Both the position numbers and the translations under genes were made by a program. A stretch of DNA of 25,360 nt from Myxococcota bacterium. Its GTDB lineage: Bacteria; Myxococcota_A; UBA796; GCA-2862545. The notes beneath the pieces were generated by a model. The model saw only the letters and a program-made list of their open reading frames with translations. It was not told where the DNA came from and did no database searches. Below, in pieces: positions 1-23,595 of this stretch (the first letter of the stretch is position 1; each line of letters opens with the position of its first letter). The stretch is taken from the NCBI GenBank assembly GCA_039208735.1, contig JBCCQY010000137.1:1-25360 (forward strand). The letters run 5' to 3'.

Positions 1-44
1 ACGTGGTGCGCCATGGAGCCGGTCGTACATATGGTCTCGGGGGC

Positions 45-200
45 CACGCAGATGCAAGCACCCGCGCTTCCTGCTTCCTGATCCTCGGATGAGGATCGTC
101 GGAGGCCGTTTCACTCGCGACGGACGAATCGTCACGAGCCAGAGCGAGCCTCCTCCACAGGCGTCTTTTTACGACCCCGAGGAGACTTCTCGGCGGTCGG
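45..200 (-). ncRNA. Putative TnpB omega-RNA (reRNA) scaffold overlapping the tnpB 3' end; boundaries approximate
   Basis: Minus-strand motifs GCCTGTGGAG (162-153), GTGAAAC (114-108) and GAAGCAGGAA (77-68) occur in the order I recognise from IS605/IS607 tnpB right ends. Stems: 101-106/148-153, 114-138, 80-97 (perfect 7 bp) and 47-66. The non-Watson-Crick pairs in the 114-138 and 47-66 stems are G-U only on the minus strand. Confidence 0.72.
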
Positions 201-1644
201 AAGCGAGCGCAGGGAACTGCGCGAGGTTCGCGGCAGCATTCGTGTCGCGGTCCGCTTCGAAACCACAACTCGAACAGTGAAAGTGGCGGATGGACGGGTC
301 GAGTTTGTCGCCAAGGTGACCACAGCGGCTACACCGCCGGGTGCTCGGATAGTGCCTTGGCGCTCGGGTGACCCGGCCTCCATGCCAGGTCACGCGTTGG
401 ATGAGCTTGGTGATGAAGGTGGCCCAAGCCAGATCGGCCAGAGCCCGGGCCATCCCGCGGCGTCGGGTTTGCATGAGCCCTTGGGTGTTCAACGTCTCGA
501 TGACCAGGTGACCGTGGTTCTTGGCCAACCGGGGCACTTCACGTCGAACAAAGGCCTCCCGCATCCGACGGGTACGAGCATGGAACCGCTTCAGGCGATG
601 TCGGGCCCTCCGCTGATTCGCAGAGCCCTTCTTCTTGCGCGCGACCGCGCGACTGAGGCGTTGGAGTTTCGGCAGACGGTCTCGCCACGGACGCGGATGC
701 TCGAGGCGCAGCACGTCGACCGCGTCAGCCGTCGCGAATACCGCGAACGTCTTGACCCCGAGGTCCAGGCCGACGGGAGCGACATCGCCGTGCACCGGTT
801 CCTCTTTGTGAAGAGGGCCCGTCTCGAGGGTCACCGCCATTCGCCATCGGCCGTCGTCGAACGACACCGTGACGTGGCACAGCTTGGTCTCGGGCTTGGC
901 GAGCAATCGGCGCAGCCGACGCATGCACTCCCGCACCTTGACCACGCCGCCGAGCTTGCGGGGGAGCCGCACGGCGCGGTGAGGGAGCCCCCCGTCGGCG
1001 GTCGTCGACTCCGAGAGGGGGCGAAAGGTGACGCCCCGCCTCACTCGGAACGACAAGCGGCTGCGGTGACGCTTCTTGAACTGGACCCGGCCCGGACAGC
1101 GCCCTTTGCGGTCGCCCTCGAACCACTTGGCTCGAGCACTCATCCCCGTTCCAGCGTCTTTCGCCCCTTCTTCCAGCACTTCCTGATGAAGCTCGGACAT
1201 CCAGGGGTGCCGAAACGTCCACTCGATGGCCTTTCTCGCCCTCTTGTCGGCCTCATCGAGCTTGCGAAGACAGGACGCTGCGAGCTGCACTGGCTCCGGG
1301 TCGTTCCCTTCGGTCTCGGCCTCGGACCGCGGGATCACCTTCCACTTGTTGAAGGCATCGATGCACTGCGTGCCCGTGACCGGAACCCACAGGTCAGGGC
1401 GACCGGACGGGTCTGCCGCCTTGACTTGCTTGCCCAGGATGTACAACGCCACCGCCTGGTTGAACGCAAATCGACGACCGTGGCCATGCGCCGAGAACCG
1501 ACGATGCTGATCTCGGGTCGGCTTCAGGGTGAACGTCCACGTCGTGCACCGCGTTCGCATCGGAATCCCGCGCGACTCCGTCGCGCTACAATTCCGCTCG
1601 GCCCTCGGCTTCGCCTGCGGGCTCTCCGGTGATGGCATCTTCAT
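169..1644 (-). CDS. tnpB: RNA-guided endonuclease TnpB (IS607-like clade). Conserved region starts at ATG 1560; in-frame ATG at 1644 overlaps the transposase stop
   Basis: N-terminal HTH (TWTFTLKPT...RRFAFNQAVA), FKKR motif, RuvC-I VGLDLGVK, RuvC-II LVIETL, zinc finger CSRC...CSSC and RuvC-III DRDTNAAANL. D-E-D triad intact. The ORF-track extension to 1869 overlaps the transposase and is unlikely. Confidence 0.93.
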   Translation of the reverse strand: MKMPSPESPQAKPRAERNCSATESRGIPMRTRCTTWTFTLKPTRDQHRRFSAHGHGRRFAFNQAVALYILGKQVKAADPSGRPDLWVPVTGTQCIDAFNKWKVIPRSEAETEGNDPEPVQLAASCLRKLDEADKRARKAIEWTFRHPWMSELHQEVLEEGAKDAGTGMSARAKWFEGDRKGRCPGRVQFKKRHRSRLSFRVRRGVTFRPLSESTTADGGLPHRAVRLPRKLGGVVKVRECMRRLRRLLAKPETKLCHVTVSFDDGRWRMAVTLETGPLHKEEPVHGDVAPVGLDLGVKTFAVFATADAVDVLRLEHPRPWRDRLPKLQRLSRAVARKKKGSANQRRARHRLKRFHARTRRMREAFVRREVPRLAKNHGHLVIETLNTQGLMQTRRRGMARALADLAWATFITKLIQRVTWHGGRVTRAPRHYPSTRRCSRCGHLGDKLDPSIRHFHCSSCGFEADRDTNAAANLAQFPALASDRREVSSGS

Positions 1645-2399
1645 GGCCAAGCGGTCCGCTCCACGGTCAACGCCGAGAGTCCGACGAACGCCCCGAACGA
1701 AAGCCCCGTCTTGTCGGTTCGGCAGCCTATCCGGCGAAATCGCTGTAGCCGCCAGAAGAACCGCTCGATGACATTGCGGAGTCCATACCGAGCACGGTTG
1801 TGCGGACGAGGGATCGGTCGACCTCGACGAGCAGGGATGACGCCTTCGATGTCGTGTTTCGACAACCAAGCCAGAAACCTGTCGCTGTCGTAGGCTCGGT
1901 CTGCGACCCGCGCTTTCGGGACCGGCATCCGCGAGAGCAGTGGGACCGCCTGGGAAATGTCGGCCCCTTGTCCGGGTGTCAGGTCAAAGCCAACCCAGCG
2001 GCCCCGGGTCGGGACGACGGCATGGACCTTGGTCGTTCGTCCACCTCGACTTCGGCCCAAAGCCTCTGCGGAAGCGGTGCTGCCTCGTGCCCCCGCCGAA
2101 TCCGGATGGGCTTTGACGATCAAGCTGTCGAGAAGGAAGATCTCCTCGGGCTCCTCGGCGCGACGGATCTCTTCGGCCATCTGCCGCCATCGTCCGACGC
2201 AAGCCCATCGGCGAAATCTTCGAAACACGGAATTCCACCGTCCGAACTTCGATGGAAGGTCTCGCCACGGAGCTCCGGTGCGCAGAATCCAGAACACGCC
2301 CTCGACGAAGAGCCGAACATCGCCGCCACGATTCCGGCGTCCGAGAACGGCGCCAGTCGACTGCACGATCCTTTGAATGGTCTCGTCTACGCCCATCAT
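1641..2399 (-). CDS. IS5-family (IS427-like) DDE transposase, single ORF; alternative TTG start at 2405
   Basis: DUF4096-like N-terminus (RLFVEGVFWILRTGAPWRDLP..FGRWNSVFRRFRRW), catalytic motifs LLDSLIVKAH, VADRAYDS and RNVIERFF, plus ALGRSRGGRTTKVH. Confidence 0.93.
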   Translation of the reverse strand: MMGVDETIQRIVQSTGAVLGRRNRGGDVRLFVEGVFWILRTGAPWRDLPSKFGRWNSVFRRFRRWACVGRWRQMAEEIRRAEEPEEIFLLDSLIVKAHPDSAGARGSTASAEALGRSRGGRTTKVHAVVPTRGRWVGFDLTPGQGADISQAVPLLSRMPVPKARVADRAYDSDRFLAWLSKHDIEGVIPARRGRPIPRPHNRARYGLRNVIERFFWRLQRFRRIGCRTDKTGLSFGAFVGLSALTVERTAWP

Positions 2400-2408
2400 A
2401 GGCAACTG

Positions 2409-2436
2409 AATATCTCATCAGATGAACGTATGTCAA
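2409..2436 (-). promoter_or_regulatory. Putative sigma70 promoter for the transposase-tnpB unit
   Basis: Perfect TTGACA (2436-2431), a 16-nt spacer and GATATT (2414-2409), lying 9 nt upstream of ATG 2399 in an AT-richer patch. Confidence 0.55.
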
Positions 2437-2478
2437 CCCCACCCCGAGACGATTATGAAGAGCGACGATCCAAACGCC

Positions 2479-3261
2479 CTAGGGCGTTCTGCGCAATTGG
2501 TGCAGCGCATCAGGCATTGGGGGAGGTTCAGGCATAGCCTCCGCCTGTTCAGCTCGATAGCGGAGCATACGGACCAATCGTTCGATCGTCGGTTCTGGGG
2601 TACCCGCTAAACGAAGGTGAAGCGCCCGCTGTTCACTCGTCAGGTGGATGACGGTGGCGTCCTCCGGGCCCCGTCGCTCGACGCCTAGGCCGCGCAACGG
2701 CCGTCGTTCATCGGAACGCCCCCGTCGAACGCGGACCGCTTGGCCATCGATGCGAATCCGAGTGGGCGCCGCAGGACACAGCAGGGCCACCAGGGCCGAG
2801 AAGAGCCCAAGCGGCGGGACCAGGCACCATAGTGCCATGACCGTGGTTGCCGCGCCATTCGCAGGAGGTGGCAAGGTGACGTCTACTCCGGCATGGTCTA
2901 CCCTGAACCTTGGGAGCGAAGCCTCCCGAACCCCGCCAAAACCCAAACGGAGTGCGCCAAGCCAAAGGCCGATTAGCCCCACGTAGCCGCAGAGTGCGCT
3001 GGTGGCAGAGACCCGGATCTCGCAACCGTTCGCCCGCAGACAATCTCCCCAATGCGAAAGGTGGCCAATCCAAAGGAGATACGCCAGTAGCGAGAGTCCC
3101 AAGCCGGCTCCCAACCGTCGCCGGATGGCCCGAACGCTGACTCGGGGTAGATCGTCGCCGTAGATCAGGCTCCAAGCAACACGACCCGTTCGTCCCCAGG
3201 CGAAGCCAGCGATCGCCAGGGTGAGGGGAGCGAAGAGAACCGGTAGCCTCAAAACGTCCAT
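2479..3261 (-). CDS. Hypothetical membrane protein with about 4 hydrophobic segments and a C-terminal soluble beta-rich domain
   Basis: 260-aa ORF with hydrophobic stretches; its TAG stop lies within the CTAG at the element boundary. Confidence 0.7.
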   Translation of the reverse strand: MDVLRLPVLFAPLTLAIAGFAWGRTGRVAWSLIYGDDLPRVSVRAIRRRLGAGLGLSLLAYLLWIGHLSHWGDCLRANGCEIRVSATSALCGYVGLIGLWLGALRLGFGGVREASLPRFRVDHAGVDVTLPPPANGAATTVMALWCLVPPLGLFSALVALLCPAAPTRIRIDGQAVRVRRGRSDERRPLRGLGVERRGPEDATVIHLTSEQRALHLRLAGTPEPTIERLVRMLRYRAEQAEAMPEPPPMPDALHQLRRTP

Positions 3262-3337
3262 GGGCCAAGCCTAAGTCACTGGCGGCGTGGCGAATCGGAC
3301 CTTTGTAGGAAACGTCCCAGATGGTTCCAAGCTACGC

Positions 3338-4111
3338 TCAAGAAGTTGGAAGACGGGGGATCCGGAACCCTTCGTCGAACTCGAACGGCGCCATCACCGT
3401 CATCGCACCGACGGCCACCAAGTCTGTCGGACTGTGCCGAGCCGACTCGCTTCTTGAGCGCTGGCTAAACGCGTCCATCGTTTCGCGCAGGGCCCGCTTG
3501 AACTCGAGGATGCTGCTGGGTAGCAAACGGAACCGGCCCAGCCCGAGTTCCGTGTGGCCAGGCAAGTCGTGCGCCTCGCGATTCGTGATGCGCTCTCGGG
3601 CGTGATCCAAAAGCGCATCCTGCAGGGTTCGAATCACGACATGGCCAAGTTCGGCATGCATTTGCAGTCCGAGGCGGTCGCGGTGGAACGGGCGCACCCG
3701 GCGATCGGTGACCACGACGAGTTCGAGACGTTGCAGCGTCATGAGGTAGCGGTGGGTCGAGTCCGGGTCGAGATCGTGTGCCTCCACAACGGCATCGACG
3801 TCGAAACGGTTCGCCCAAAGGCTCTCGAGGAAAAAGTAGTAGCCCGGATTACGGACCAAGAACGTCTGTTGCTCTTCATTGAGCAGCACGGGCTCACCGG
3901 GTGGGTTTGCCGCTTCGGCCACCAGGTCCTCGAACGACAGTTCGAGCGACTCGCAGATTCGCAAGAGCCGCGACACCGAGCCATCCTCGGCATTCAGCAC
4001 CTTCTTCACCCCCGATTCCGACAACCCAATATCGGTACCGAGCGCTTGGTAAGTGATCTTCCGTGCGCGCAAGATGCGCTTGAGTGTTCGAACCAGGTCA
4101 CCATACGTCAT
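3338..4111 (-). CDS. XRE-family helix-turn-helix transcriptional regulator
   Basis: N-terminal LKRILRARKITYQALGTDIGLSESGVKKVLN...SVSRLLRICESLELSFEDL is a Cro/C1-type HTH. Confidence 0.85.
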   Translation of the reverse strand: MTYGDLVRTLKRILRARKITYQALGTDIGLSESGVKKVLNAEDGSVSRLLRICESLELSFEDLVAEAANPPGEPVLLNEEQQTFLVRNPGYYFFLESLWANRFDVDAVVEAHDLDPDSTHRYLMTLQRLELVVVTDRRVRPFHRDRLGLQMHAELGHVVIRTLQDALLDHARERITNREAHDLPGHTELGLGRFRLLPSSILEFKRALRETMDAFSQRSRSESARHSPTDLVAVGAMTVMAPFEFDEGFRIPRLPTS

Positions 4112-4200
4112 AGCCCTGGAGATACCGCGCGGGGGTCTGTCACTCCGCGGAATTGTGGATCGGACCTAAATCGGGTCCCTTTTTGCCGCCCGGAGGCCCC

Positions 4201-4818
4201 ATGCACCCCAATCCGCTGTTTCGATCTCGCGACCCAGATGCGAACCTGCGATTTGCGCAGGACCGGGGCTTTGGTGTGTTGACGGTCAACGGGGAGGCGA
4301 GCCCTCACGTGGCCCACGTCCCCCTTCTGTTGAACGACACGAACACCGAGGTGTGGGCTCACCTGTCTCGAGCCAACCCCCTCCTCGGGGCGCTTCCCAA
4401 GAATGGATGCCTCGTGGTATCGGGCCCCGACGCCTACATCTCGCCCGATTGGTACGGTCTGAGGAGCCAGGTTCCCACCTGGAACTATGTGGCGGTCCAT
4501 CTTCGAGGCCACGTACAAATCGCAGGGCCAGACACGCTCCGCGAACATCTCGACACCTTGGCGGCGGCTCACGAAGCCCAGTTCCCTTCCAAGGCACCGT
4601 GGCGAACGACGTCCGTGCCACCCGAGAAACTAGAAGCCATGATGCGCGCGATTGTGCCGGTACGGCTTTCCCTTCAGTCCGTCGAAGGTACGTGGAAGCT
4701 CGGCCAGAACAAACCCCGTTCCGCGGTTCATGCAGCGGCCGAAACGCTCATGGATTCGGACTACGGCCAAGAAGTCGCTACGTTGGCCGATTGGATGCGC
4801 AAAGAACCAGACCGTTAG
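4201..4818 (+). CDS. paiB: FMN-binding negative transcriptional regulator (PaiB family)
   Basis: Motifs AHLSRANP, GPDAYISPDWY, VPTWNYVAVHLRG and WKLGQNK; GGAGG precedes ATG 4201. Confidence 0.9.
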   Translation: MHPNPLFRSRDPDANLRFAQDRGFGVLTVNGEASPHVAHVPLLLNDTNTEVWAHLSRANPLLGALPKNGCLVVSGPDAYISPDWYGLRSQVPTWNYVAVHLRGHVQIAGPDTLREHLDTLAAAHEAQFPSKAPWRTTSVPPEKLEAMMRAIVPVRLSLQSVEGTWKLGQNKPRSAVHAAAETLMDSDYGQEVATLADWMRKEPDR

Positions 4819-10912: not shown

Positions 10913-13900
10913 ATGCTCCGTCTCCATCTCCCCGCCCTCGCCACATGCTTGGGGCTCTGGCTGGCCGCGTTCCCCGCTCATGCAGCGTGTGGTGATGGCA
11001 TCGTCGATGTGGGAGAGACCTGCGATGATGCGAACGTGCTCAACCGCGATGGATGCAGCGCGAGTTGCCAAACCGAAGCGGGCTTTCGCTGTAGTGATGA
11101 AGGGTTTACCCTGGACTTCACCGAAGCGTTGACCACGGGGGGAGGCCCCGCCCCCCAATGGACCGTCTCGAAAGATGGACGGAGGGTGGCTCAACGTTCC
11201 AACTCCACCCCTACGGTCTACCTTTCCACCCTGCCCGCTTCGGGGCTGTCCATCACGATGGAAATCGAAGTCAGCACCACGAGAGACGATGACTTCATCG
11301 GATTTGTGATCGGCTATGCACCTGGTGAGAACGCAGACCAAGACGCAGAATGGTTGGTGTTCGACTGGAAACAGCGGACGCAGACCCATCTGGCCCGTAC
11401 CGCACGCCGAGGCACCTCGCTCAGCCGTGTCGTAGGCCCTATCCGGGACACGATCTATCGAAATCGAACGACGGACGGCTTTGCCGACCTATGGTCGCAC
11501 GAAAACGAAGTGTCCGAGATCGTTCGGGGTAGCGTGTTTGGCGACACAGGCTGGCTCGACAACACGGTGCACACCCTACAGGTCACCTACTCAACGTCTC
11601 AAATCGATATCTTCATCGATGGGGTTCTCGACATCTCGGAGACCGGGAGTTTTCCGTCGGGGAACTTCGGTTTCTACACGTTCTCACAGCCCGAAGGTTC
11701 CTTTACCCTGACGTCGCCTCTTGCGGGAACGTCACTGTGTGGGGAGCTCGACTCCGATCAGGACGGGCTCACCGACCCCGTCGAACTCGCTGCGGGCACC
11801 GATGTGTCGAGTGCCGACTCCGATGGAGACGGAATCGACGATTCGACCGAGTACGGGCTCTCCAGCGGCCCGGGCATCGACACGGATGGCGACGGACTCC
11901 TCGATGCGCTGGATGAGGATGACGACAACGATGGCCTCACGACCGCCGATGAAATCACGCTGGGTACGAACCCTCTCGATGCAGATTCGGACGGCGACGG
12001 ACTGACCGACGCCTACGAGGTGGACGTGATCGGTTCGGACCCCTTGAACACGGACACCGACGGCGATGGATTGTCCGATGCCGAAGAGGACGCCGCAGGC
12101 ACGTCTGCAAGTCTGCCGGACAGCGACGCGGATGGCGTTGTCGACCGCTACGACGTTGATACCTACGGTGGATCCACCTTCGTTGTGACCACGATCGCCA
12201 ACCATGGCGCGGGGTCGCTGCGGCGAGCTATCGAAGATGCCAACGCGCTCGCAGGCTTCGACGCAATCACCTTCGCCATTCCGGGGGACGGGCCCCACGT
12301 CATCGAACTGACGACGGCATTGCCCACCATCGATAGCCCTACCCTCGTCGATGGACTGAGCCAGCCGGGATCGGCGTGCGGCGAACGCGGCGCCGGACAC
12401 CAGCTCGAGGTCGTGCTTTCCGGTCAGAGTCAAGCCGTGCAAGGCCATGGGTTGTACATCCGCACCGCCGAGGCCACGGGATCGATGATTCGCGGATTGG
12501 TCGTTGGAGGATTTAGTAGAAACGCGATCTTCGTTCGTGATGCCGCGCAAGTGAAGGTGCAATGTTCCTACTTGGGGGTTGCGGTCGATGGGATCACGAC
12601 GATGCCAAACGGCTGGCACGGCCTGTCCTCGCGCAGCGATGGCACGAGGGCCCATGGCACGGTCGTAGGAACCGACGGGGACGGGATCGGCGATGCTTTG
12701 GAGTGGAACCTCATCGCGGGCAATGGTCTGTCTGGTGTGCAACTCAACGACACACAGTCAGGGGATTGGGTCGAGGACGTGGTGGTGGCGGGCAACGTCT
12801 TTGGGGCGGATGCATCGGGAACCCAACCTGTGGCACAAGGCAGCCATCAGATTCTCCTCATTGGCCGCCACCGGAATGTCCAGATCGGCACCAATGGCGA
12901 TGGAATCTCGGACGATCTTGAGGGGAACCTGTTTGGCGCCCACGGGGGCTGGGCCCTGCACGTGTCCGACCAAGGCTCGCAGAACCTTGTGTTTGCGGGC
13001 AACCTTTTGGGCACCACCCTCGACGGGACGACCGCTCTCGAACCATCGCGCCGTAATGGCGTTTGGCTGGGCGGGGAGAACGACGACGTCCGCATTGGAG
13101 GCTCCGGAGCGCTCGACGGCAACGTGTTCATGAGCATGAATCGTGGAGTTCAGGCGCAGGGCCAGCACATCTACACAAAGGGGGAGACCCAGTTCACCCA
13201 TCCGCGGTCGTTCTACGGAGGCGCCGTCGCAGAGCGCCTGCTCGTGCAGGGAAATGTCTTTGGCGAAGGAGCGACCGGCACCATCGACCGGGTAAACGAG
13301 CCCCTCGACCTTGAATTGGTCGCCGACGCGCAGGTGCTCGACAACCGGTTCGTCGGGGACAGCCAGGGAGGTCAACCAGCGATCACAGTGGTGGGAGCCG
13401 AGGCGGAAATCCGTGGGAATACGTTCGTGAACCAGCCCCATGCAGCCATCCAGCTACATCCTCACACCGGAAACAACCGCATCGACGATGAACTCGTTGC
13501 CCCCGATGACGTGCTTGCCGTGACGGTGATCCAGGCCAACCACTTTGAATCTGTGTTGCAAGGTACGAGTAGCCACGTCGAAGGTGCCATCGAGGCGATG
13601 GACACGCCGGTCGACGCGCTACACAACGACCGTGGCGGATGGTTGGTGCGCCAGAACACTTGGGGGAACCTCAACCAAGGGGTGGCGGTGCGGCAGCGTT
13701 GGCGAGGAACCGTCGAGTTTGTCCGCGACGGTGCATCCACCACCCCGGTGGGCCCAGTACAAACGCGCCAAGTCACCTCGTCCCGGGTCAGCGACACGAT
13801 CACGTACACCGCGGCGACCACCTTCGGTGCAGAGGCGGGAAGCGCCACCTTGCTCGCCGTAGATACAGACTCACTCGAAGAGCGGTCGGGCTGGGGCGCT

Positions 13901-16900
13901 CAACCTGAATTCCATCGGTTGAGCGATGGCACCATCGACACGGTGCTCATCGAGTCGCGGTGTGGCACCCGCTACTCCTACGATGCCGATTCCACCACCC
14001 ACCCCACCGACACCGGGGTGGGCTTTCCCGAAGGCATTGCAACCCCGCTCACGCACCCCCATTTCACCCGCTCGCTTCCTGGATCGGTGACACGGTACCA
14101 AGTGTTCGAGTTCGGCGAAGCCTGCGAAACGTGCGGCAACGGTTACCTCGATGCGGATGAAGCCTGCGATGATGGAAATGGCGTAGGCGGCGATGGCTGC
14201 AGCCCATCCTGCGAGATCGAGGAAGGCTACATTTGTCCGGTGGTTGGGGTCCCATCGACGGGAGTTGAGGACGTCACGGGCAACGCCCTGGCTCACGGCA
14301 GCGTTGATCCCCGCTGGGACGCCTCGTTCGACGGTGCCAGCTACACGCAAGCCAGCGTCCTTGACCTCGACGATTGCGGTCCCCAGGTGTGGACGCGGCC
14401 GGCCTTGGGCGTCCCGAGCCAGTGGCTTTTGGTGCCGGGAAGCGATGCGTGTGACACGCAACAGTCGCCCGGCTACCCGCGATGGCGCACCACGGTCGAC
14501 ATCACCCCTGCCCAGCGGTCCACGAGCACCTTCAAAATCCGCCTCGCCGCCGACAATCGCGTGAGGTTCGTTCAGGTCAATGGGGCACGCTACACACCGG
14601 CCTTCAACGTCGGATGGACGCTCGACACCCTCGAATTCCCGACATCTGCTCTCGAGGTCGGGTCCAACGTGATCGAAGTGGTCGCGCGAAACAGCGGTTC
14701 GGGACCCAATCCGACCGCGTTGATGGTCAGTCAATCCCCCGGAACGTGCGTGCGCGACACCGACGGAGACGGGATTGGGAATCCTGGAGACCCGGATGCC
14801 GACAACGACGGCATCGCCAATGTCGACGAAGGAACCCTCGATCCCGACGGGGATGGAATTCCCTCGGGACTGGACCTCGATTCGGACGGTGACGGCGTCT
14901 TCGACATCGAAGAAACCGGGTTGACCGACGCAGATGGCGATGGGCGGGTCGATGGGCCCGACACGGACGGCGACGGTGTCCGAGATGCCGTTGACGCCGA
15001 TCCGTCCGACCCCAACGTCACCGATCTGACAACCTCGACCGAAGTGTGCGGCAATGGCGTGGTGGGCTTCGGCGAGACCTGTGACGACACCAACGCGCAA
15101 GACGGCGATGGATGTAGCGCCACCTGTCAGGTTGAAGAAGGCTACGTGTGCGCGCTTGTGGACCTGCCCAAAACCGGCGTCGACGCATCGACGGGCCGCG
15201 CGGTGGCTCACGGTTCGTTGGACCCCCATTGGGACGTCTCCCTTGACGGGGGACCATTCGAAGCGGCAGGTGTGGTGGACGTCGATGTCTGCGGGCCCAC
15301 CACCTGGGTCAGGCCGGTGATCGGCCTGCCAAGCCGCTGGGTGGTAAAACCCGAGGCCGATCCTTGTGATCTGACCCAGACCGGCCCGGCCACACTGACG
15401 TTCCGAGCTGCCTTCAATGCCGCAGCGGTCGACCGCTCGGCCGGCGTGCTCACGTTCCGCCTGGCGACCGACAACATCCTGACCGCCGTCCGCGTCAACG
15501 GTGAAGCCTACACCGCCATTCCCAATCAAGGCCAGTTCTCGCGATTTTGGCGCGTGACGTTGCCCGGTGATGCACTGCTCGTCGGCAACAACGAGGTCGA
15601 ATTGGATGTGCTGAATCGAGCGCCCAGTCCGGTGGGCCTGCAGATCACCCAGTCCGCTACGACGTGCGTACTCGATACCGATGGCGATGGGATTGGCGAT
15701 CCTGGCGACCCCGATGCCGACAACGACGGCATCGCAAACACCGCCGAGGGAGGGTTCGACCCCGATGGCGATGGCATCCCCTCTTGGCTCGACACAGACC
15801 AAGACGGCGACGGCCTGTCCGATGTGGCCGAGGCCGGGTTGACCGATCTCGACGGGGATGGCCAAGTCGACGGGGACGACACCGATGGCGACGGAGTGCG
15901 AGATGGGGTGGATGCCGCCTCGACCGACCCCAACCAGCGGGGCGTCACGACACAGGCCGATACCTGCGGCAATCAGCGAATCAGCCAGGGTGAGAGCTGT
16001 GATGACGGCAATGCACTCGGGGGAGATGGCTGCAGCACAACCTGCCAAATCGAGGATGGCTACGTCTGCCCCGTGGTCGCAGTACCGCCCACTGGCGTCG
16101 ATGCGGTTTCGAACCAAGCCCTCGCCCACGGGGTCACCGACCCGAGGTGGCAGCTTGCTCTCGATGGGGTCGCATCTGACGCCACCACGGTGGTCGACAT
16201 CGATTGGTGCGGACCTGAGACTTGGGCCGCAGCGGCCCTCGGCATTCCTAGCCGCTGGCTCATCCCCACCCTCCCAGCGGTCGACAATCCGTGGGCCCCC
16301 CAAGACTTCCTTCGGACGACCTGTCCCTCCGCCTTGGGTCTCGACCAGCGGCTCAGCTACCTGGTGTCCTTTGACGTGGCGCCGCGCGACCTCGGAGCAG
16401 GGGTCCTTCGGCTGCGGCTTGCTGTCGACAATGAAGTCGTATCGGTCCGGGTCAACGACACCGAGTACACCGAGTTTCCAGACCCCTCTGGCTTAGGGAG
16501 TCTATGGGAACTCGAACTCCCCAACGAGGCGCTGGTAAGCGGCACCAATGAGCTTGAACTCAGTGTCGCGAGCGGAGAAGGCCCAGCGGGGCTTCAGGTC
16601 TCGGCCTCGCTGCCTCAGTGCGTGATGGACACCGACGGCGATGGCATCGGTGATCCAGGTGATCCCGATGCCGACAACGACGGCATCGCCAATGACGACG
16701 AAGGGGTCTCCGATCTAGATGGCGACGGGCTCCCCGCTTGGCAAGACTCGGACTCCAACGGCGATGGGATCAACGACGTCCGCGACATGGGGCTTCCCGA
16801 CACCGACGGAGATGGCCAGGTCGATGGGCCGGACACCGATGGTGATGGCGTGCGCGACGCGGTCGACGGCAATCCAACCGATCCGGACGACCGACAGGTG

Positions 16901-17575
16901 ACCACCGATCCGGAGGTGTCGGGAGCCGACCGTGATGGTGACGGGCTCACAGATGCGCTTGAAGCCGAGGTGGGTACGGATCCCGACTTCGCCGATACCG
17001 ATGCCGACTTGCTGACCGACGGGGAAGAGGTCCTGACGTTCGGTACCGACCCCCTGGACGCCGACACCGACACCGACAACCTGATCGACGGATTGGAAGT
17101 CTTGGGCTTTGACACGGTGTTGAACACCGGCGATGAGACCGCAGCCCTCGACCTCGATCCCGATGACGACGGCCTCGACGACCGGCAAGAGCTGTTTGGA
17201 CTGGACGGCCTGCTGTTCAGCGGCGACGAGACGGATCCAAACGAAGCGGACACCGACCAAGACGGCTTGATCGATGGCCTGGAAGCCGGCATGACCAATG
17301 GACTGGCGGATGGCGTCAGTGTGAGTGGCATCCCTTACGGTGGAACCGACCCGGCGGTTTCGCTGGACTCCGACGCCACTACGACGACGGATCCGAACAA
17401 CGACGACACCGATGGTGACGGCTTACTCGACGGTGAGGAAGATCTGGACCGCGACGGTGCGGTGAGCGTTGGAGAGACCGACCCGATCAACCCCGACTCG
17501 GACGGGGGTGGCGAAATCGACGGCGACGAGGTCACCCAAGGCAGGAACCCACTCGATCCAAGCGACGATCGTTGA
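10913..17575 (+). CDS. Giant secreted modular protein (2220 aa) with Myxococcus Cys-rich (DUF4215-like) repeats, a thrombospondin C-terminal-like domain, DxDGDG calcium repeats, a beta-helix region and three tandem modules
   Basis: Signal peptide ending AHA; four CG(D/N)..E.CDD.N...GDGCS..C-type repeats; [11 protein letters not shown]; many D.DGDG repeats; [11 protein letters not shown] followed by GN-rich beta-helix turns. Confidence 0.9.
14132..16918 (+). repeat. Three tandem modules of about 305-318 aa within the giant protein
   Basis: Module starts (TGCGGCAA) at 14132, 15047 and 15965, spaced 915 and 918 nt; each shares AHG..DP.W, RLA.DN and [23 protein letters not shown]. Confidence 0.9.
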
Positions 17576-19981: not shown

Positions 19982-20548
19982 TTGAGTGGAATTCAACGCC
20001 TTCTGCCGCTCTTCCATCGTCGCTGGGCGGCTTCCGTCCTCGTTCACTTGGCTCACCCCGACACCGCGCGTACCGGCCGGGCCCGAGTCTCGGCCATCGC
20101 GAGCATGTTCGGCGCGAATCGAGAAGCCGTTCGGCAGTCTGTGAGGGCGCTCGAAAGTGTCCAGGCGGTAGAGCGCAACCCCGGCCATGGTCACCCGTTG
20201 AGGCCGGAGCTTCGCCTTACCGAGCGCGGCCAACGGCTCGCCCCGCACTTCAAAGCGCTTCATGACCTGTTGACCGAACTCGGTCACCGCGATCTGGGAT
20301 TGCGCAAGTGGCCAATGCCCGCCCTCTACGCAGTAGGAGCAGGACCGACACGGTTTGGGGCCATCTCCGATCAGCTACCCAAGGTGACGGACCGCGCCCT
20401 TTCCCAGGCGCTCCGGCGCCTTCGGGAAGCCGAGCTGATCGACCGCACCATGAACGAGGACCAGCCCCCCCGACCCGTCTACCAGAGCATCGGACGGGGA
20501 CTCGACGTCGTGACCGTCTTGAACGACCTCGTCCAGACGGTCGACTGA
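19982..20548 (+). CDS. Winged-helix regulator with two tandem HxlR-like domains
   Basis: First domain HRRWAASVL...GHGHPLRPELRLTERG; second domain RKWPMPAL...RFGAISDQLPKVTDRALSQALRRL...PPRPVY; GGAG precedes the TTG. Confidence 0.85.
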   Translation: MSGIQRLLPLFHRRWAASVLVHLAHPDTARTGRARVSAIASMFGANREAVRQSVRALESVQAVERNPGHGHPLRPELRLTERGQRLAPHFKALHDLLTELGHRDLGLRKWPMPALYAVGAGPTRFGAISDQLPKVTDRALSQALRRLREAELIDRTMNEDQPPRPVYQSIGRGLDVVTVLNDLVQTVD

Positions 20549-20604
20549 AGCATTCGTACGGCCGAGGGCATGGCTTGTCCCTAAGGCAACCGTTGGGGCG
20601 TTCC

Positions 20605-23595
20605 ATGAAGCATTGGGCAGGTTGGTTTTTCGTTGGGTGGCTGGCCGCGTGTGGCGGGTCTGAACCCAATTGTGGGTGGGTACCAGACCGCGATGGGGAC
20701 GGGTTCGGCGATCGGGAGGCCACCCCAAGGTGTGGCGTATCGAGCAAAGATGGGTATGTCCTCGACAATACGGACTGCGACGACCTGAATCCTGGGGTTC
20801 GGCCCGATGCGACCGAGCAGTGCGACGTCGATGGCATTGACGAGAACTGTGATGGTCTTGCCAACAACGATGACGTGGAGCTGATTGGTGGTTTGGCCGG
20901 GTACCCGGATGCCGACGGGGACGGGTTTGGGGACGGCGCCGCGGAACCGGTCTGGTTTTGTACGATTCCAGACGACTACCGCTCGAACTCACAGGACTGC
21001 GATGACGACGACCCCTTTGCCTTCCCAGGCGCCGCGAGACGCATGGGAGCCCAGCTGTGCACCCGAGATGCCGACGGCGATGGTTGGGGGGACGCCACCG
21101 CGATGCCGCCGGTGGTCGCGGGGGACGACTGCAATGACGAGGATTCGCGGGTCTTTCCCGAGGCCGAGGAACGATTCGGAGATTTGGCCGACCAGGACTG
21201 CGACGGAGAAGACTTCTGGCGAATCGCCGATGGATTTGAGCTCGGGTTCCCAGATCCAGAGGTTTGGGAGCACATCGGAGGCACCGCCGATGTCACCGAC
21301 GCCTCACCGTACGAAGGTCAGTTGGCCTTGCGTCTGGATGGGGCGACGCTCACCACCGTCCAGGTCGACACCACTTCGTGTAGCAGCCTTCGCTGGGGAT
21401 TCTGGATCGAAAGCGTGTGGGCGGACGAGGTGATCGTTGAGGCCTGGAATGGGCAACAGTGGGTAGACCTTCTCTTCGAGCAGCCCACTCGTGGCTACGC
21501 TCGCATCGAAGGCACCTTGGATGACTCCTTTGCCTTTCATCCGGCATTCCAAATGCGAATCTTCGTCGATCGGTATTCAAGGGCCACCCTCGACTCCTTC
21601 GAATTGGCATGCCCAGGACCCGATGGCGATGGAGACGGATGGTTCTTTCATGAAGATTGTGACGACGGAGACTCCGCTCATTGGTCGGATTGCGGACTCT
21701 GCACCGACGTAGACGGCGACGATTTCGGCCTGGGCTGCAACCAAGGCCTAGATTGCGACGATTCCGATGCCGGAGTGTTCCCGGAAAGCGGCAACGACGA
21801 CTCGATCAATGGGATGGATGAGGACTGCGACGGCTCCGATGGCGACTCGTTCTTTGACGATTTCGAATCAGGGTTTCTCGGTGCAGCAATCTGGGAACCC
21901 AGCTCCGGCGCTCAGATCATCCAAGATAGCAGCCAGGTTTTGCGTCTTCGAAGCGAGGACTCCGCGACGACGACCCCTCTCGATATGGACGGGTGCTCGG
22001 GTATCTACTGGTCGATGGACGTCCGGAAGGGATGGCTCTTCCTCGATACAGCACCCCTACCCGGGGATCGACTCACCTTGCAGTACAACGCAGGGAACGG
22101 ATTCGTGAACGCTGGCACTTTGATCAGCAATGGCGGTCAGGACGTTCGACCGGGTCCGTGGTCAGGGATCCTCACGGATCCCCTCGCAATGGTCCCGGAG
22201 ATTCAATTCCGGCTGCAGGCGAGCCCTTCCAACCCACGCATGTCGTGGCTCATCGACAACCTCACCATCTCGTGCTCCGGAATCGATGAAGACAAAGACG
22301 GCTGGCCAGAGATGCGCGACTGTGCGCCTTTGGATAGGGCACACTTCCAGGACTGTGGACAGTGCATCGACGCGGACGGCGACGGAGCAGGAATCAACTG
22401 TGACCTTGGACCGGACTGCGGTGAGGGTATTGTCGAAATCCACCCGGGAGCTGCAGATTCCTTTGGTGACGGCCTTGACAGCGATTGTGATGGATACGAT
22501 GGAACCGCGTTCTTTACGTCATTCGAGACGGGGGTGTTTGATTCCCAGACGTGGAATCGCCTTGAAGGCGCCGCCATGTTGACGCGCGACCCTTTCGAAC
22601 GGACCCTGGCCATGTACCTAGACGAAGATTCGTCGGCGACAACGACGGCCTTCGATACGTCGCTTTGCCCTGCGGTGTATTGGTCGTACGAAGCGCAACG
22701 GAATCTGGAGCCAAAGGATGAACTGACGGTCGAAATGTGGACTGGCGAAGAATGGCGAGTGGCGGAAACGTGGTCTGGCGACACCTTCTCCGACGTAGAC
22801 TACGTCTTTCGCGATGGATGGATCGATGACCCCTCGGTGCTCCATCCCCAGTTCCGTCTTCGCTTTAGGGTGGAAGCCGACTCGGACCAAAACCACGTAA
22901 ACATTGACGATATTCTGTTCGCGTGTACCGAGCCCGACCTAGATGGCGACGGTTTCGCCAGCATTATCGACTGCGACCCCGCCGACCCCTTCCACTGGTC
23001 GGACTGTGGTCAGTGTGTAGATGGCGATGGCGATGGCTACGGAATGTCCTGCGACCTCGGGCTCGACTGCGACGACACCAATGTCGCATTCACCCCCTTT
23101 GGAGCCGATCCGTTCGGCGACGGATTCGACACGGATTGCTCAACCCAGGATGGTCCTGGTTGGTACGAAGGATTTGACGCGGGCTACCTCAGCGCTTTGT
23201 GGGAGGTCGTGCGGGAGCCCGCCCTGTTGTCGAACACCGATTTTCAGAGCGCCCCGTACAGTCTGCACCTCACCCGCGACGGTGGGGTGACCACTCGGAC
23301 TTGGGACACCTCCGGCTGTACATCGCTTGCGTGGGACGTTGCGATTCAGCGAGGGTTCTTCCCTCCTGACGCCAATGAACCCGTTGTTTTGTCCTGGTTT
23401 AACGGCACGGACTGGGTGCCCTTCTTCGAGTTGCTCGGTGGCATATCGGACAGTGGGTTCGTGCCCTATTCCGGCACGATCGTGGATGCCGAAGCCCAAT
23501 CCCCCGACTTCCAATTCCGCGTTGAGCTTAGAGCGGACTCTGATTGGGCGGATGAGGTGTTTGTGGATGACCTCACCCTGCATTGCATCGAGTAG
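20605..23595 (+). CDS. Repeat lipoprotein (996 aa) with MopE-like Cys/Asp-rich motifs and four jelly-roll-like domains
   Basis: MKHW...LAAC lipobox at ATG 20605; DCDD.(N/D)P..(Y/F)P.A.E..DG.D.(N/D)CDG-type motifs; repeat period about 630-660 nt. Confidence 0.85.
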   Translation: MKHWAGWFFVGWLAACGGSEPNCGWVPDRDGDGFGDREATPRCGVSSKDGYVLDNTDCDDLNPGVRPDATEQCDVDGIDENCDGLANNDDVELIGGLAGYPDADGDGFGDGAAEPVWFCTIPDDYRSNSQDCDDDDPFAFPGAARRMGAQLCTRDADGDGWGDATAMPPVVAGDDCNDEDSRVFPEAEERFGDLADQDCDGEDFWRIADGFELGFPDPEVWEHIGGTADVTDASPYEGQLALRLDGATLTTVQVDTTSCSSLRWGFWIESVWADEVIVEAWNGQQWVDLLFEQPTRGYARIEGTLDDSFAFHPAFQMRIFVDRYSRATLDSFELACPGPDGDGDGWFFHEDCDDGDSAHWSDCGLCTDVDGDDFGLGCNQGLDCDDSDAGVFPESGNDDSINGMDEDCDGSDGDSFFDDFESGFLGAAIWEPSSGAQIIQDSSQVLRLRSEDSATTTPLDMDGCSGIYWSMDVRKGWLFLDTAPLPGDRLTLQYNAGNGFVNAGTLISNGGQDVRPGPWSGILTDPLAMVPEIQFRLQASPSNPRMSWLIDNLTISCSGIDEDKDGWPEMRDCAPLDRAHFQDCGQCIDADGDGAGINCDLGPDCGEGIVEIHPGAADSFGDGLDSDCDGYDGTAFFTSFETGVFDSQTWNRLEGAAMLTRDPFERTLAMYLDEDSSATTTAFDTSLCPAVYWSYEAQRNLEPKDELTVEMWTGEEWRVAETWSGDTFSDVDYVFRDGWIDDPSVLHPQFRLRFRVEADSDQNHVNIDDILFACTEPDLDGDGFASIIDCDPADPFHWSDCGQCVDGDGDGYGMSCDLGLDCDDTNVAFTPFGADPFGDGFDTDCSTQDGPGWYEGFDAGYLSALWEVVREPALLSNTDFQSAPYSLHLTRDGGVTTRTWDTSGCTSLAWDVAIQRGFFPPDANEPVVLSWFNGTDWVPFFELLGGISDSGFVPYSGTIVDAEAQSPDFQFRVELRADSDWADEVFVDDLTLHCIE

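Follow-up and report, generated by a model that had tools for sequence, protein, structure and literature searches.

Why a cut-and-paste transposon should keep a gene for the nuclease TnpB is put as an open question in the text of a 2026 review (PMC13565253), and the same question is raised by a locus at the start of contig JBCCQY010000137.1 (here C137) in assembly GCA_039208735.1 (here G000) of a Myxococcota bacterium. We analyzed positions 1 to 25,360 of this contig, the stretch called the window throughout, in which an insertion sequence (IS) of the IS5 family with a DDE transposase is followed on the minus strand by tnpB and an omega-RNA-like tail. With a probability of roughly 0.65, we read this element as a copy of an IS5 lineage in which short inverted repeats enclose the transposase gene, an overlapping tnpB and a gene for a conserved structured RNA; according to this reading, its TnpB would be guided by host DNA just beyond the right end and would cleave sites free of the element after 5′-CTA, which would favour restoration of the element. 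An earlier note made from the window alone had placed the element at 45..2482, which holds only in outline: its real start is 2479, and another IS interrupts it at 38/37.

A family of IS5 elements with tnpB

The window element is a copy of a real and widespread autonomous IS5+TnpB family and not a one-off. From 164 loci collected via a TnpB search, the best 32 were used for a linkage count, which takes in the window itself and some duplicate loci: a co-directional IS5 transposase gene accompanied tnpB in 28, a divergent one in 1 and none in 1, while 2 loci were too short. The stop/start overlap of the two genes, already seen in the window, recurs in all 22 distinct junctions of the family, and the C-terminal signature of the linked transposases is shared by 100 of the 120 nearest transposases. 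In an unrooted tree of 96 rows from a quick IQ-TREE run, the linked transposases form one clade, with a support of 99 in the Shimodaira-Hasegawa-like approximate likelihood ratio test (SH-aLRT), which excludes 11 solo IS5 elements; L197 and 12 divergent actinobacterial transposases are also placed outside. The nearest transposases to that of the window thus make up a TnpB-linked clade apart from solo IS5s, which bears out the proposal of a stable element rather than a nested insertion. In an unrooted FastTree tree, the TnpBs of the linked clade are monophyletic (support 97) and nested in a larger clade (99) with actinobacterial forms. Comparison of both proteins revealed co-divergence of their pairwise identities (Mantel rho 0.75, n = 18 loci after those >90% identical had been dropped, p = 0.0005).

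A second two-gene element lies in the same genome on contig C263 (62% and 50% identity), and the window element recurs at ~99% identity in two other sequencing runs; no second exact copy of its 13-nt left end is present in the assembly. G000 holds 8 left and 9 right ends that belong to several subfamilies and for the most part lie at the edges of contigs. Within contigs C27, C72, C8 and C138, isolated fragments of ends or of tnpB are remnants of deleted copies.

Contigs of the runs X1 (possibly the source run), X2 (another study), X3 (another sample) and X4 were compared with the window; among those listed, none covers the whole element. X1 covers window positions 13-4323 with zero differences. 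The gene junction at 1641 is bridged by single contigs of X3 (across 798-2483) and X2 (across 1566-1764), and the misassembly that had been considered for 1600-1650 was not found. Both X2 and X3 contain the element at ~99% identity from 38 to 2483. Below position 38 they run on into an intact right end, which equals that at the end of contig C112, and the last 31 bp of the window element are most likely to be found there. After 2483, X3 diverges from the window into other DNA and thereby provides a second left flank for a ~99% identical element. Since X2 and X3 hold the element and lack coverage of window 2551-3150, the host gene at 2479-3261 is not part of it.

The description of the nuclease as IS607-like is probably right. 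IS607_TnpB is the best model for the window protein at 207 bits, below its cutoff of 350 (relatives 225-317), and more distant TnpBs (L104, L045) stand beside serine recombinases. These two resolvase neighbors were the ones detected among 65 upstream open reading frames scanned at 48 loci, and no Y1 TnpA was found among the same frames; L104 is an IS607 element not bounded by terminal inverted repeats (TIRs). Judged from the unrooted trees, the IS607-like module would have been captured once or a few times and since kept with IS5 ends. Neither protein has a relative among the viral contigs searched.

Variation within and around the family concerns gene order, ends and flanks. L197 is a distant co-directional example on a plasmid of a cultured isolate. 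The transposase is split near profile position 106-122 in 7 loci. In the actinobacterial sister branch (L017, L040, L042, L075 and others), a distant IS5 transposase is transcribed away from tnpB, and there are many transposase-less derivatives with the same ends, including 12 end matches in genome G424. A Promicromonosporaceae subclade (support 99; L006, L063, L076, L114, L119, L033) has kept TnpB and the core of the omega-RNA with no recognisable right repeat, and three of its loci sit after a ROK gene; it is possibly immobilised or exapted. L102 and L103 share the left flank and differ in the right one, as a result of adjacent deletion, rearrangement or an assembly chimera. L005 and L002 are identical loci, and the same-genus locus L003 has flanks identical to those of L065.

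Gene pair and predicted omega-RNA

Both genes follow one sigma70-like promoter at 2409..2436 on the minus strand (TTGACA, 16 nt, extended −10), the single site found against 0.1 expected from shuffles, in agreement with the earlier note. It includes a GTTCA motif common to many left ends. Also, a GTTCA...TGAAC palindrome overlaps with the promoter spacer at the left ends of the window, C8, C94, C184, L002 and others, possibly an autoregulation site of the transposase. The transposase (1641..2405, minus strand; 252-254 aa, open frame) scored 211 bits with NF033580 against a cutoff of 110, and profile search identified its domains DUF4096 and DDE_Tnp_1. Residues D93, D169 and E214 presumably form the DDE triad, an assignment that relies on IS5 motifs. 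Its stop codon TGA (1643-1641) overlaps the start codon ATG (1644-1642) of tnpB in an ATGA at 1641..1644 (minus strand), which suggests translational coupling of the two genes.

TnpB (169..1644, minus strand; 491 aa) scored 165 bits with guided_TnpB against a cutoff of 100. The RuvC triad D294/E383/D467 and the C4 zinc finger are intact, as stated before for the triad, which is invariant wherever covered across 34 co-directional relatives. A structure model had a predicted local distance difference test (pLDDT) value of 79, with TnpB-omegaRNA complexes as best fold matches. With an intact triad and a conserved RNA structure, RNA-guided DNA cleavage dependent on a transposon-associated motif (TAM) is predicted for this protein. 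In variant contigs of X2, X3 and X4, 39 extra letters, a multiple of three, are present at window 1604 in the N-terminal linker of TnpB. From the tnpB stop to the inferred element end it is about 160 bp, and the element length is ~2.47 kb for the window copy and ~2.3-2.5 kb among family elements.

The 5′ part of the predicted omega-RNA scaffold lies at 38..204 (minus strand) and overlaps the 3′ end of tnpB. The omega-RNA-like character of this tail was supported by folding of window positions 38-215 (z = −3.64) and by compensatory double changes in 28 of 40 predicted pairs across 21 co-directional elements; in the alignment, 96% of cells pair compared with 32-51% in slid controls. No Rfam family matches the tail. 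The right inverted repeat forms the 3′ strand of the last hairpin, and pairing in this TIR helix amounts to 94%, with double changes at 3 pairs. The TIR had also been considered as the guide itself and was rejected, as it pairs inside the scaffold. An extra perfect hairpin at 80-97, an insert of ~20 nt, is absent from 16 aligned relatives and present in the main X2/X3 contigs.

At the end of the RNA, terminal GCT(T) complements an AAGC loop in 74 of the 77 GCT-ending elements scored (93 rows in total; 6 had no anchor, and 8 GCC-ending rows misfit simple pairing). On these grounds, the first loop may form a pseudoknot with the terminal bases; its three candidate pairs never vary and thus give no covariation support, and a compensatory change of loop and end was seen only in L197. 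Concerning DDE-linked TnpBs, the text of PMC10691335 describes a guide-adapter hairpin that encompasses the transposon ends. According to the text of PMC10711439, IS607 scaffolds include fixed flanking bases, and TIR plus target site duplication (TSD) are predicted inside Fanzor scaffolds. By analogy, the guide should therefore start at or just after the TA.

Ends, target site and predicted TAM

The left TIR (2465..2479, minus strand) matches the right end on C112 at 10 of 15 bases, counted by eye; in most relatives the repeat is less degenerate. Between the genes, a search for an inverted copy of the left end found none, as had been observed before. The inverted ends of family elements are ~15 bp long; in 35 loci with both ends visible, 12-16 of 16 bases are inverted and the flanks are TA, which stands on both sides in nearly all loci. 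The target TA of the window copy, a likely duplication, is at 2480..2481 and is preceded by C on the element strand, giving CTA, the predicted TAM. Together with the first G of the element, it serves the host gene at 2479-3261 as stop codon. At G000, 10 of 13 CTA-flanked ends coincide with the stop codon of an open frame that is 150 codons or longer, compared with 17% of all CTAR sites. As TA and the first purine of the element recreate the stop, such insertions are likely harmless. At the left junction (2474-2489), 16 nt form a perfect palindrome with CTAG at its centre, and the site of the sister element L008 likewise lies within an inverted repeat, between convergent genes.

For L008, a clean empty site was identified in L247, where the TA occurs once. 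For the window insertion, the empty site that had been suggested as a check was not found, the host gene having only a 32% match in one of four same-genus genomes. The flanks of the 35 complete loci revealed no empty allele among the loci or in G000, and in a search among relatives with the flank of a G424 element, matches stop short of the junction.

The two ends of the co-directional clade differ. The left flank is CTA at 15 of 15 distinct ends, with G as first base of the element in 12 of them. At the right end, the last base is G in 12 and T in 10 of 22 cases and never C; a C scored for L055 alone results from a register shift of two bases. Right ends from G000-G003 have T last in 18 of 18 cases, and the left ends of G003 begin with G. 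TnpB-less IS5 elements, in contrast, end in C|TA in all nine resolved cases of 13 examined, three being copies from one genome. With G at the left start, symmetry would put C last at the right end, so that CTA would precede the guide target. The avoidance of C at the right end fits the predicted selection by a CTA TAM with self-avoidance. We infer re-cleavage of the donor site by TnpB, backed by this flank asymmetry.

The proposed mechanism would proceed as follows. The transposase would insert the element (~2.47 kb) at sites of the C^TA^G type and duplicate the TA, a duplication seen for the sister element, and one transcript would give both proteins by stop/start coupling. The omega-RNA would extend across the right inverted repeat, which makes up its last hairpin, with the guide starting at or after the TA. 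An empty site, arising from precise excision or present as an element-free allele, would read CTA plus target and be cut, while the occupied site would read TTA or GTA plus target and be spared. Precise excision has been reported for Escherichia coli IS5 in the text of PMC5493358. In the window copy, an IS1111-type insert would part the scaffold from the last hairpin and the guide, leaving the nuclease probably unguided in cis.

Several points weigh against this mechanism. Cleavage, expression and excision are predictions from sequence. The flank counts come from related elements that are not independent, so that the p-values of these counts overstate their significance. The left CTA is partly the transposase's own CTAG preference, with G at +3 in 20 of 22 cases in the co-directional clade. 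The asymmetry between positions −3 and +3 (29/30 vs 46/60) comes mostly from the actinobacterial branch and is weak in the co-directional clade, and 4 of 30 left calls are not CTA. The clean empty site was found in only one of seven relatives and belongs to the sister branch. According to the text of PMC13565253, cut-and-paste excision leaves its own break, which makes the benefit of TnpB less obvious. The ends of the window copy match only at the 10 of 15 bases given above. The candidate pseudoknot offers another possible reason for a fixed T at the right end, though not for a G.

The strongest of the alternatives, which we consider unlikely, is as follows: the element and its RNA-guided cleavage are real, and the boundary of TAM and guide differs, for example with a guide that includes the TA and targets a TA-TA footprint, the end asymmetry being due to RNA folding or transposase chemistry. 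The loop complementarity of GCT(T) shows that RNA structure constrains the end, and the left flank is CTG or TGG at four ends. However, the 12 of 22 right ends that finish in G cannot pair with the loop A and still avoid C, the ends of solo IS5 elements are symmetric, and the fixed flanking bases described within IS607 and Fanzor scaffolds (PMC10711439, as far as its text goes) point to a guide that starts later. A slightly poorer fit is a TnpB that acts as hitch-hiker or regulator, binding the empty site or transposon RNA or riding on IS5 ends, with no role in element retention. A transposase is absent from 59 of 94 actinobacterial loci (139-190 bits, at least 900 nt upstream), and transposases of two distant IS5 clades occur as partners of one TnpB clade, which makes the partner exchangeable; the invariant triad, the conserved gene overlap, the long co-divergence and the avoidance of C at the right end nevertheless speak against a mere passenger or regulator. 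A one-off nested insertion, deletion product or misassembly, which the missing right repeat of the window copy, its position at a contig end and the 6% contamination of the assembly might suggest, is already refuted by the intact ends in X2/X3, the junction-bridging contigs and dozens of relatives with both repeats, and its probability is negligible.

An IS1111-type insertion in the predicted omega-RNA gene

The earlier note had overlooked that the omega-RNA of the window copy is split by an IS1111-type element, which is itself likely to be RNA-guided. Its left end occupies 1..37 (minus strand), with a 7-bp extension at 37-31 and a 14-bp sub-terminal repeat at 30-17, and C137 breaks inside it. 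The insertion point at 37/38 falls in the loop of the penultimate omega-RNA hairpin, and the window copy therefore has no right end. The scaffold being separated from the guide, this copy is probably guide-dead, as far as its sequence tells. According to the text of PMC11187229, IS1111 sub-terminal repeats are set in from the element ends by 7 bp on the left and by 3 bp on the right, and this geometry (14-bp repeat, 7 + 3) was found at 2 left and 5 right junctions in the assembly. Beyond three of the five right junctions (those on C112, C32 and C146) lies a family right end, entered each time at this omega-RNA loop position. The target motif there reads CCCCG^RGAAGGGG. Of the others, C191 has a half-motif with no clear TIR and was not counted as an omega-RNA match, and the sequence at C54 matches nearly and lies elsewhere. 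At the other left junction (C22), agreement with the motif is poor. All seven unhit right ends in the genome differ in the motif, C100 (of the subfamily of C32 and C146) by one base.

X1 has the IS1111-type element as a contig of 1,882 nt with roughly six-fold the local depth, and the body of the element is absent from the assembly, where only 9 codons of a putative DEDD transposase gene are visible at the end of C22. These codons resemble IS110 N-termini. No full IS1111 copy was found in 60 relatives, three weak matches being unrelated. In the 137 nt available for a putative downstream seekRNA, no significant complementarity to the target was seen, and an 8-nt match to the donor junction was present (p = 0.0075). 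Outside omega-RNAs, 16 shorter motif matches are all empty, and the 13-mer is empty once; insertions at the omega-RNA motif were seen in one genome. It is a tentative idea, which we hold to be rather less probable than its opposite, that the IS5 lineage re-tuned its right repeat so that TnpB, with a CTA TAM derived from the CTAG target of the transposase, cuts the empty and never the occupied site, that the IS1111-type element is programmed by its seekRNA to hit and thereby disarm the omega-RNA hairpin, and that unhit copies carry escape changes in the motif.

Other features of the window

The host gene at the left flank (2479..3261, minus strand), outside the element, has no Pfam match. A 17-nt perfect inverted match between 1643-1659 and 2731-2747 is probably due to chance: ~9 unrelated exact 17-mers occur genome-wide, and the internal arm (1643-1659) encodes the conserved transposase tail, the other arm lying in the host gene. 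Large secreted-looking repeat proteins with Cys- and Asp-rich repeats are encoded at 10913-17575 (2,220 aa) and 20308-23595 (1,095 aa). Such repeats are typical of myxobacteria.

Comparison with known systems

The TnpB-less IS5 elements (e.g., L198-L202) resemble the family in the transposase (42-47% identity), in similar repeats and in a YTAR target with TA; they differ in that they end within ~65 bp of the transposase, have symmetric ends in C and carry T before the left TA in 3 of 9 cases. We take this comparison group to be IS427-like. The IS427 subgroup is characterized by TA duplication in YTAR and a frequent two-frame transposase. ISL2 and IS1031 are subgroups of the IS5 family as well. 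DDE-linked TnpB groups are named ISL2, IS630 and IS1031 in the text of PMC13565253, and six DDE-linked TnpB branches with inverted terminal repeats, DDE-1 to DDE-6, are in print (Altae-Tran et al., PNAS 2023, PMC10691335), so the supposition that the pairing might be uncatalogued did not hold. As in these branches, the window family has a DDE transposase and TnpB inside inverted repeats, a tnpB 3′ end <250 bp from the element end (here ~160 bp), solo TnpBs with the same ends and a guide-adapter hairpin that takes in the transposon end. Unlike DDE-1 to DDE-6 as described in main and supplementary text, it has a coupled co-directional IS5 operon, a TA/CTAG target, a predicted TAM and an end asymmetry; for DDE-5, the described TA lies 8 bp from the end. 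The survey in PMC10691335 probably already contains this clade, the actinobacterial branch being common in public genomes.

With IS607 elements (ISXfa1, CboIStron), the family shares the order tnpA-tnpB-omegaRNA, probably the TnpB type, fixed flanking bases that are likely part of the scaffold and the candidate pseudoknot between 5′ loop and terminal bases. It differs from them by a DDE transposase instead of a serine recombinase and by inverted repeats with a likely TA duplication instead of GG ends without duplication, IS607 being defined in the text of PMC13565253 by GG termini and the lack of TIR and TSD. Unlike IS200/IS605 elements, which have a Y1 HUH TnpA and hairpin ends without TIRs, it combines an IS5 DDE transposase with TIRs. 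Fanzor1 and Fanzor2*, from eukaryotic cut-and-paste transposons, likewise represent an IS607-derived nuclease in a transposon with TIR and TSD, both of which are predicted in the RNA scaffold (text of PMC10711439); the family is distinguished from them by its bacterial host, the canonical D-E-D active site and an independent capture.

IS1111-family elements are known from other mobile elements, with IS4321/IS5075 on Tn21 repeats and an attC group according to the text of PMC11187229. The inserted element agrees with that family in its sub-terminal repeats with 7-bp/3-bp extensions and in repeated insertion at one motif in one orientation, and differs from the known targets in that it sits in a hairpin loop of a TnpB omega-RNA. 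Our literature search, outside which most subscription journals fall, showed among the papers listed no description of a coupled IS5-TnpB operon, of the end asymmetry or of IS1111 targeting of omega-RNA. The association of DDE transposase and TnpB is already known; the prediction of TAM and self-avoidance and the IS1111-type element in a guide RNA gene are additions.

The family makes the retention of TnpB testable, as it provides autonomous two-gene elements with a likely TA duplication, a CTA TAM that can be predicted and a putative rule for self and non-self that rests on one base and that solo IS5 elements do not share. It also provides ~30 compact nucleases with a predicted short TAM, and a bacterial parallel to the capture of Fanzor by eukaryotic DDE transposons. 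The IS1111-type insertions suggest that other mobile elements can be programmed to target omega-RNA genes; if this is true, one RNA-guided transposon would parasitise and disarm another.

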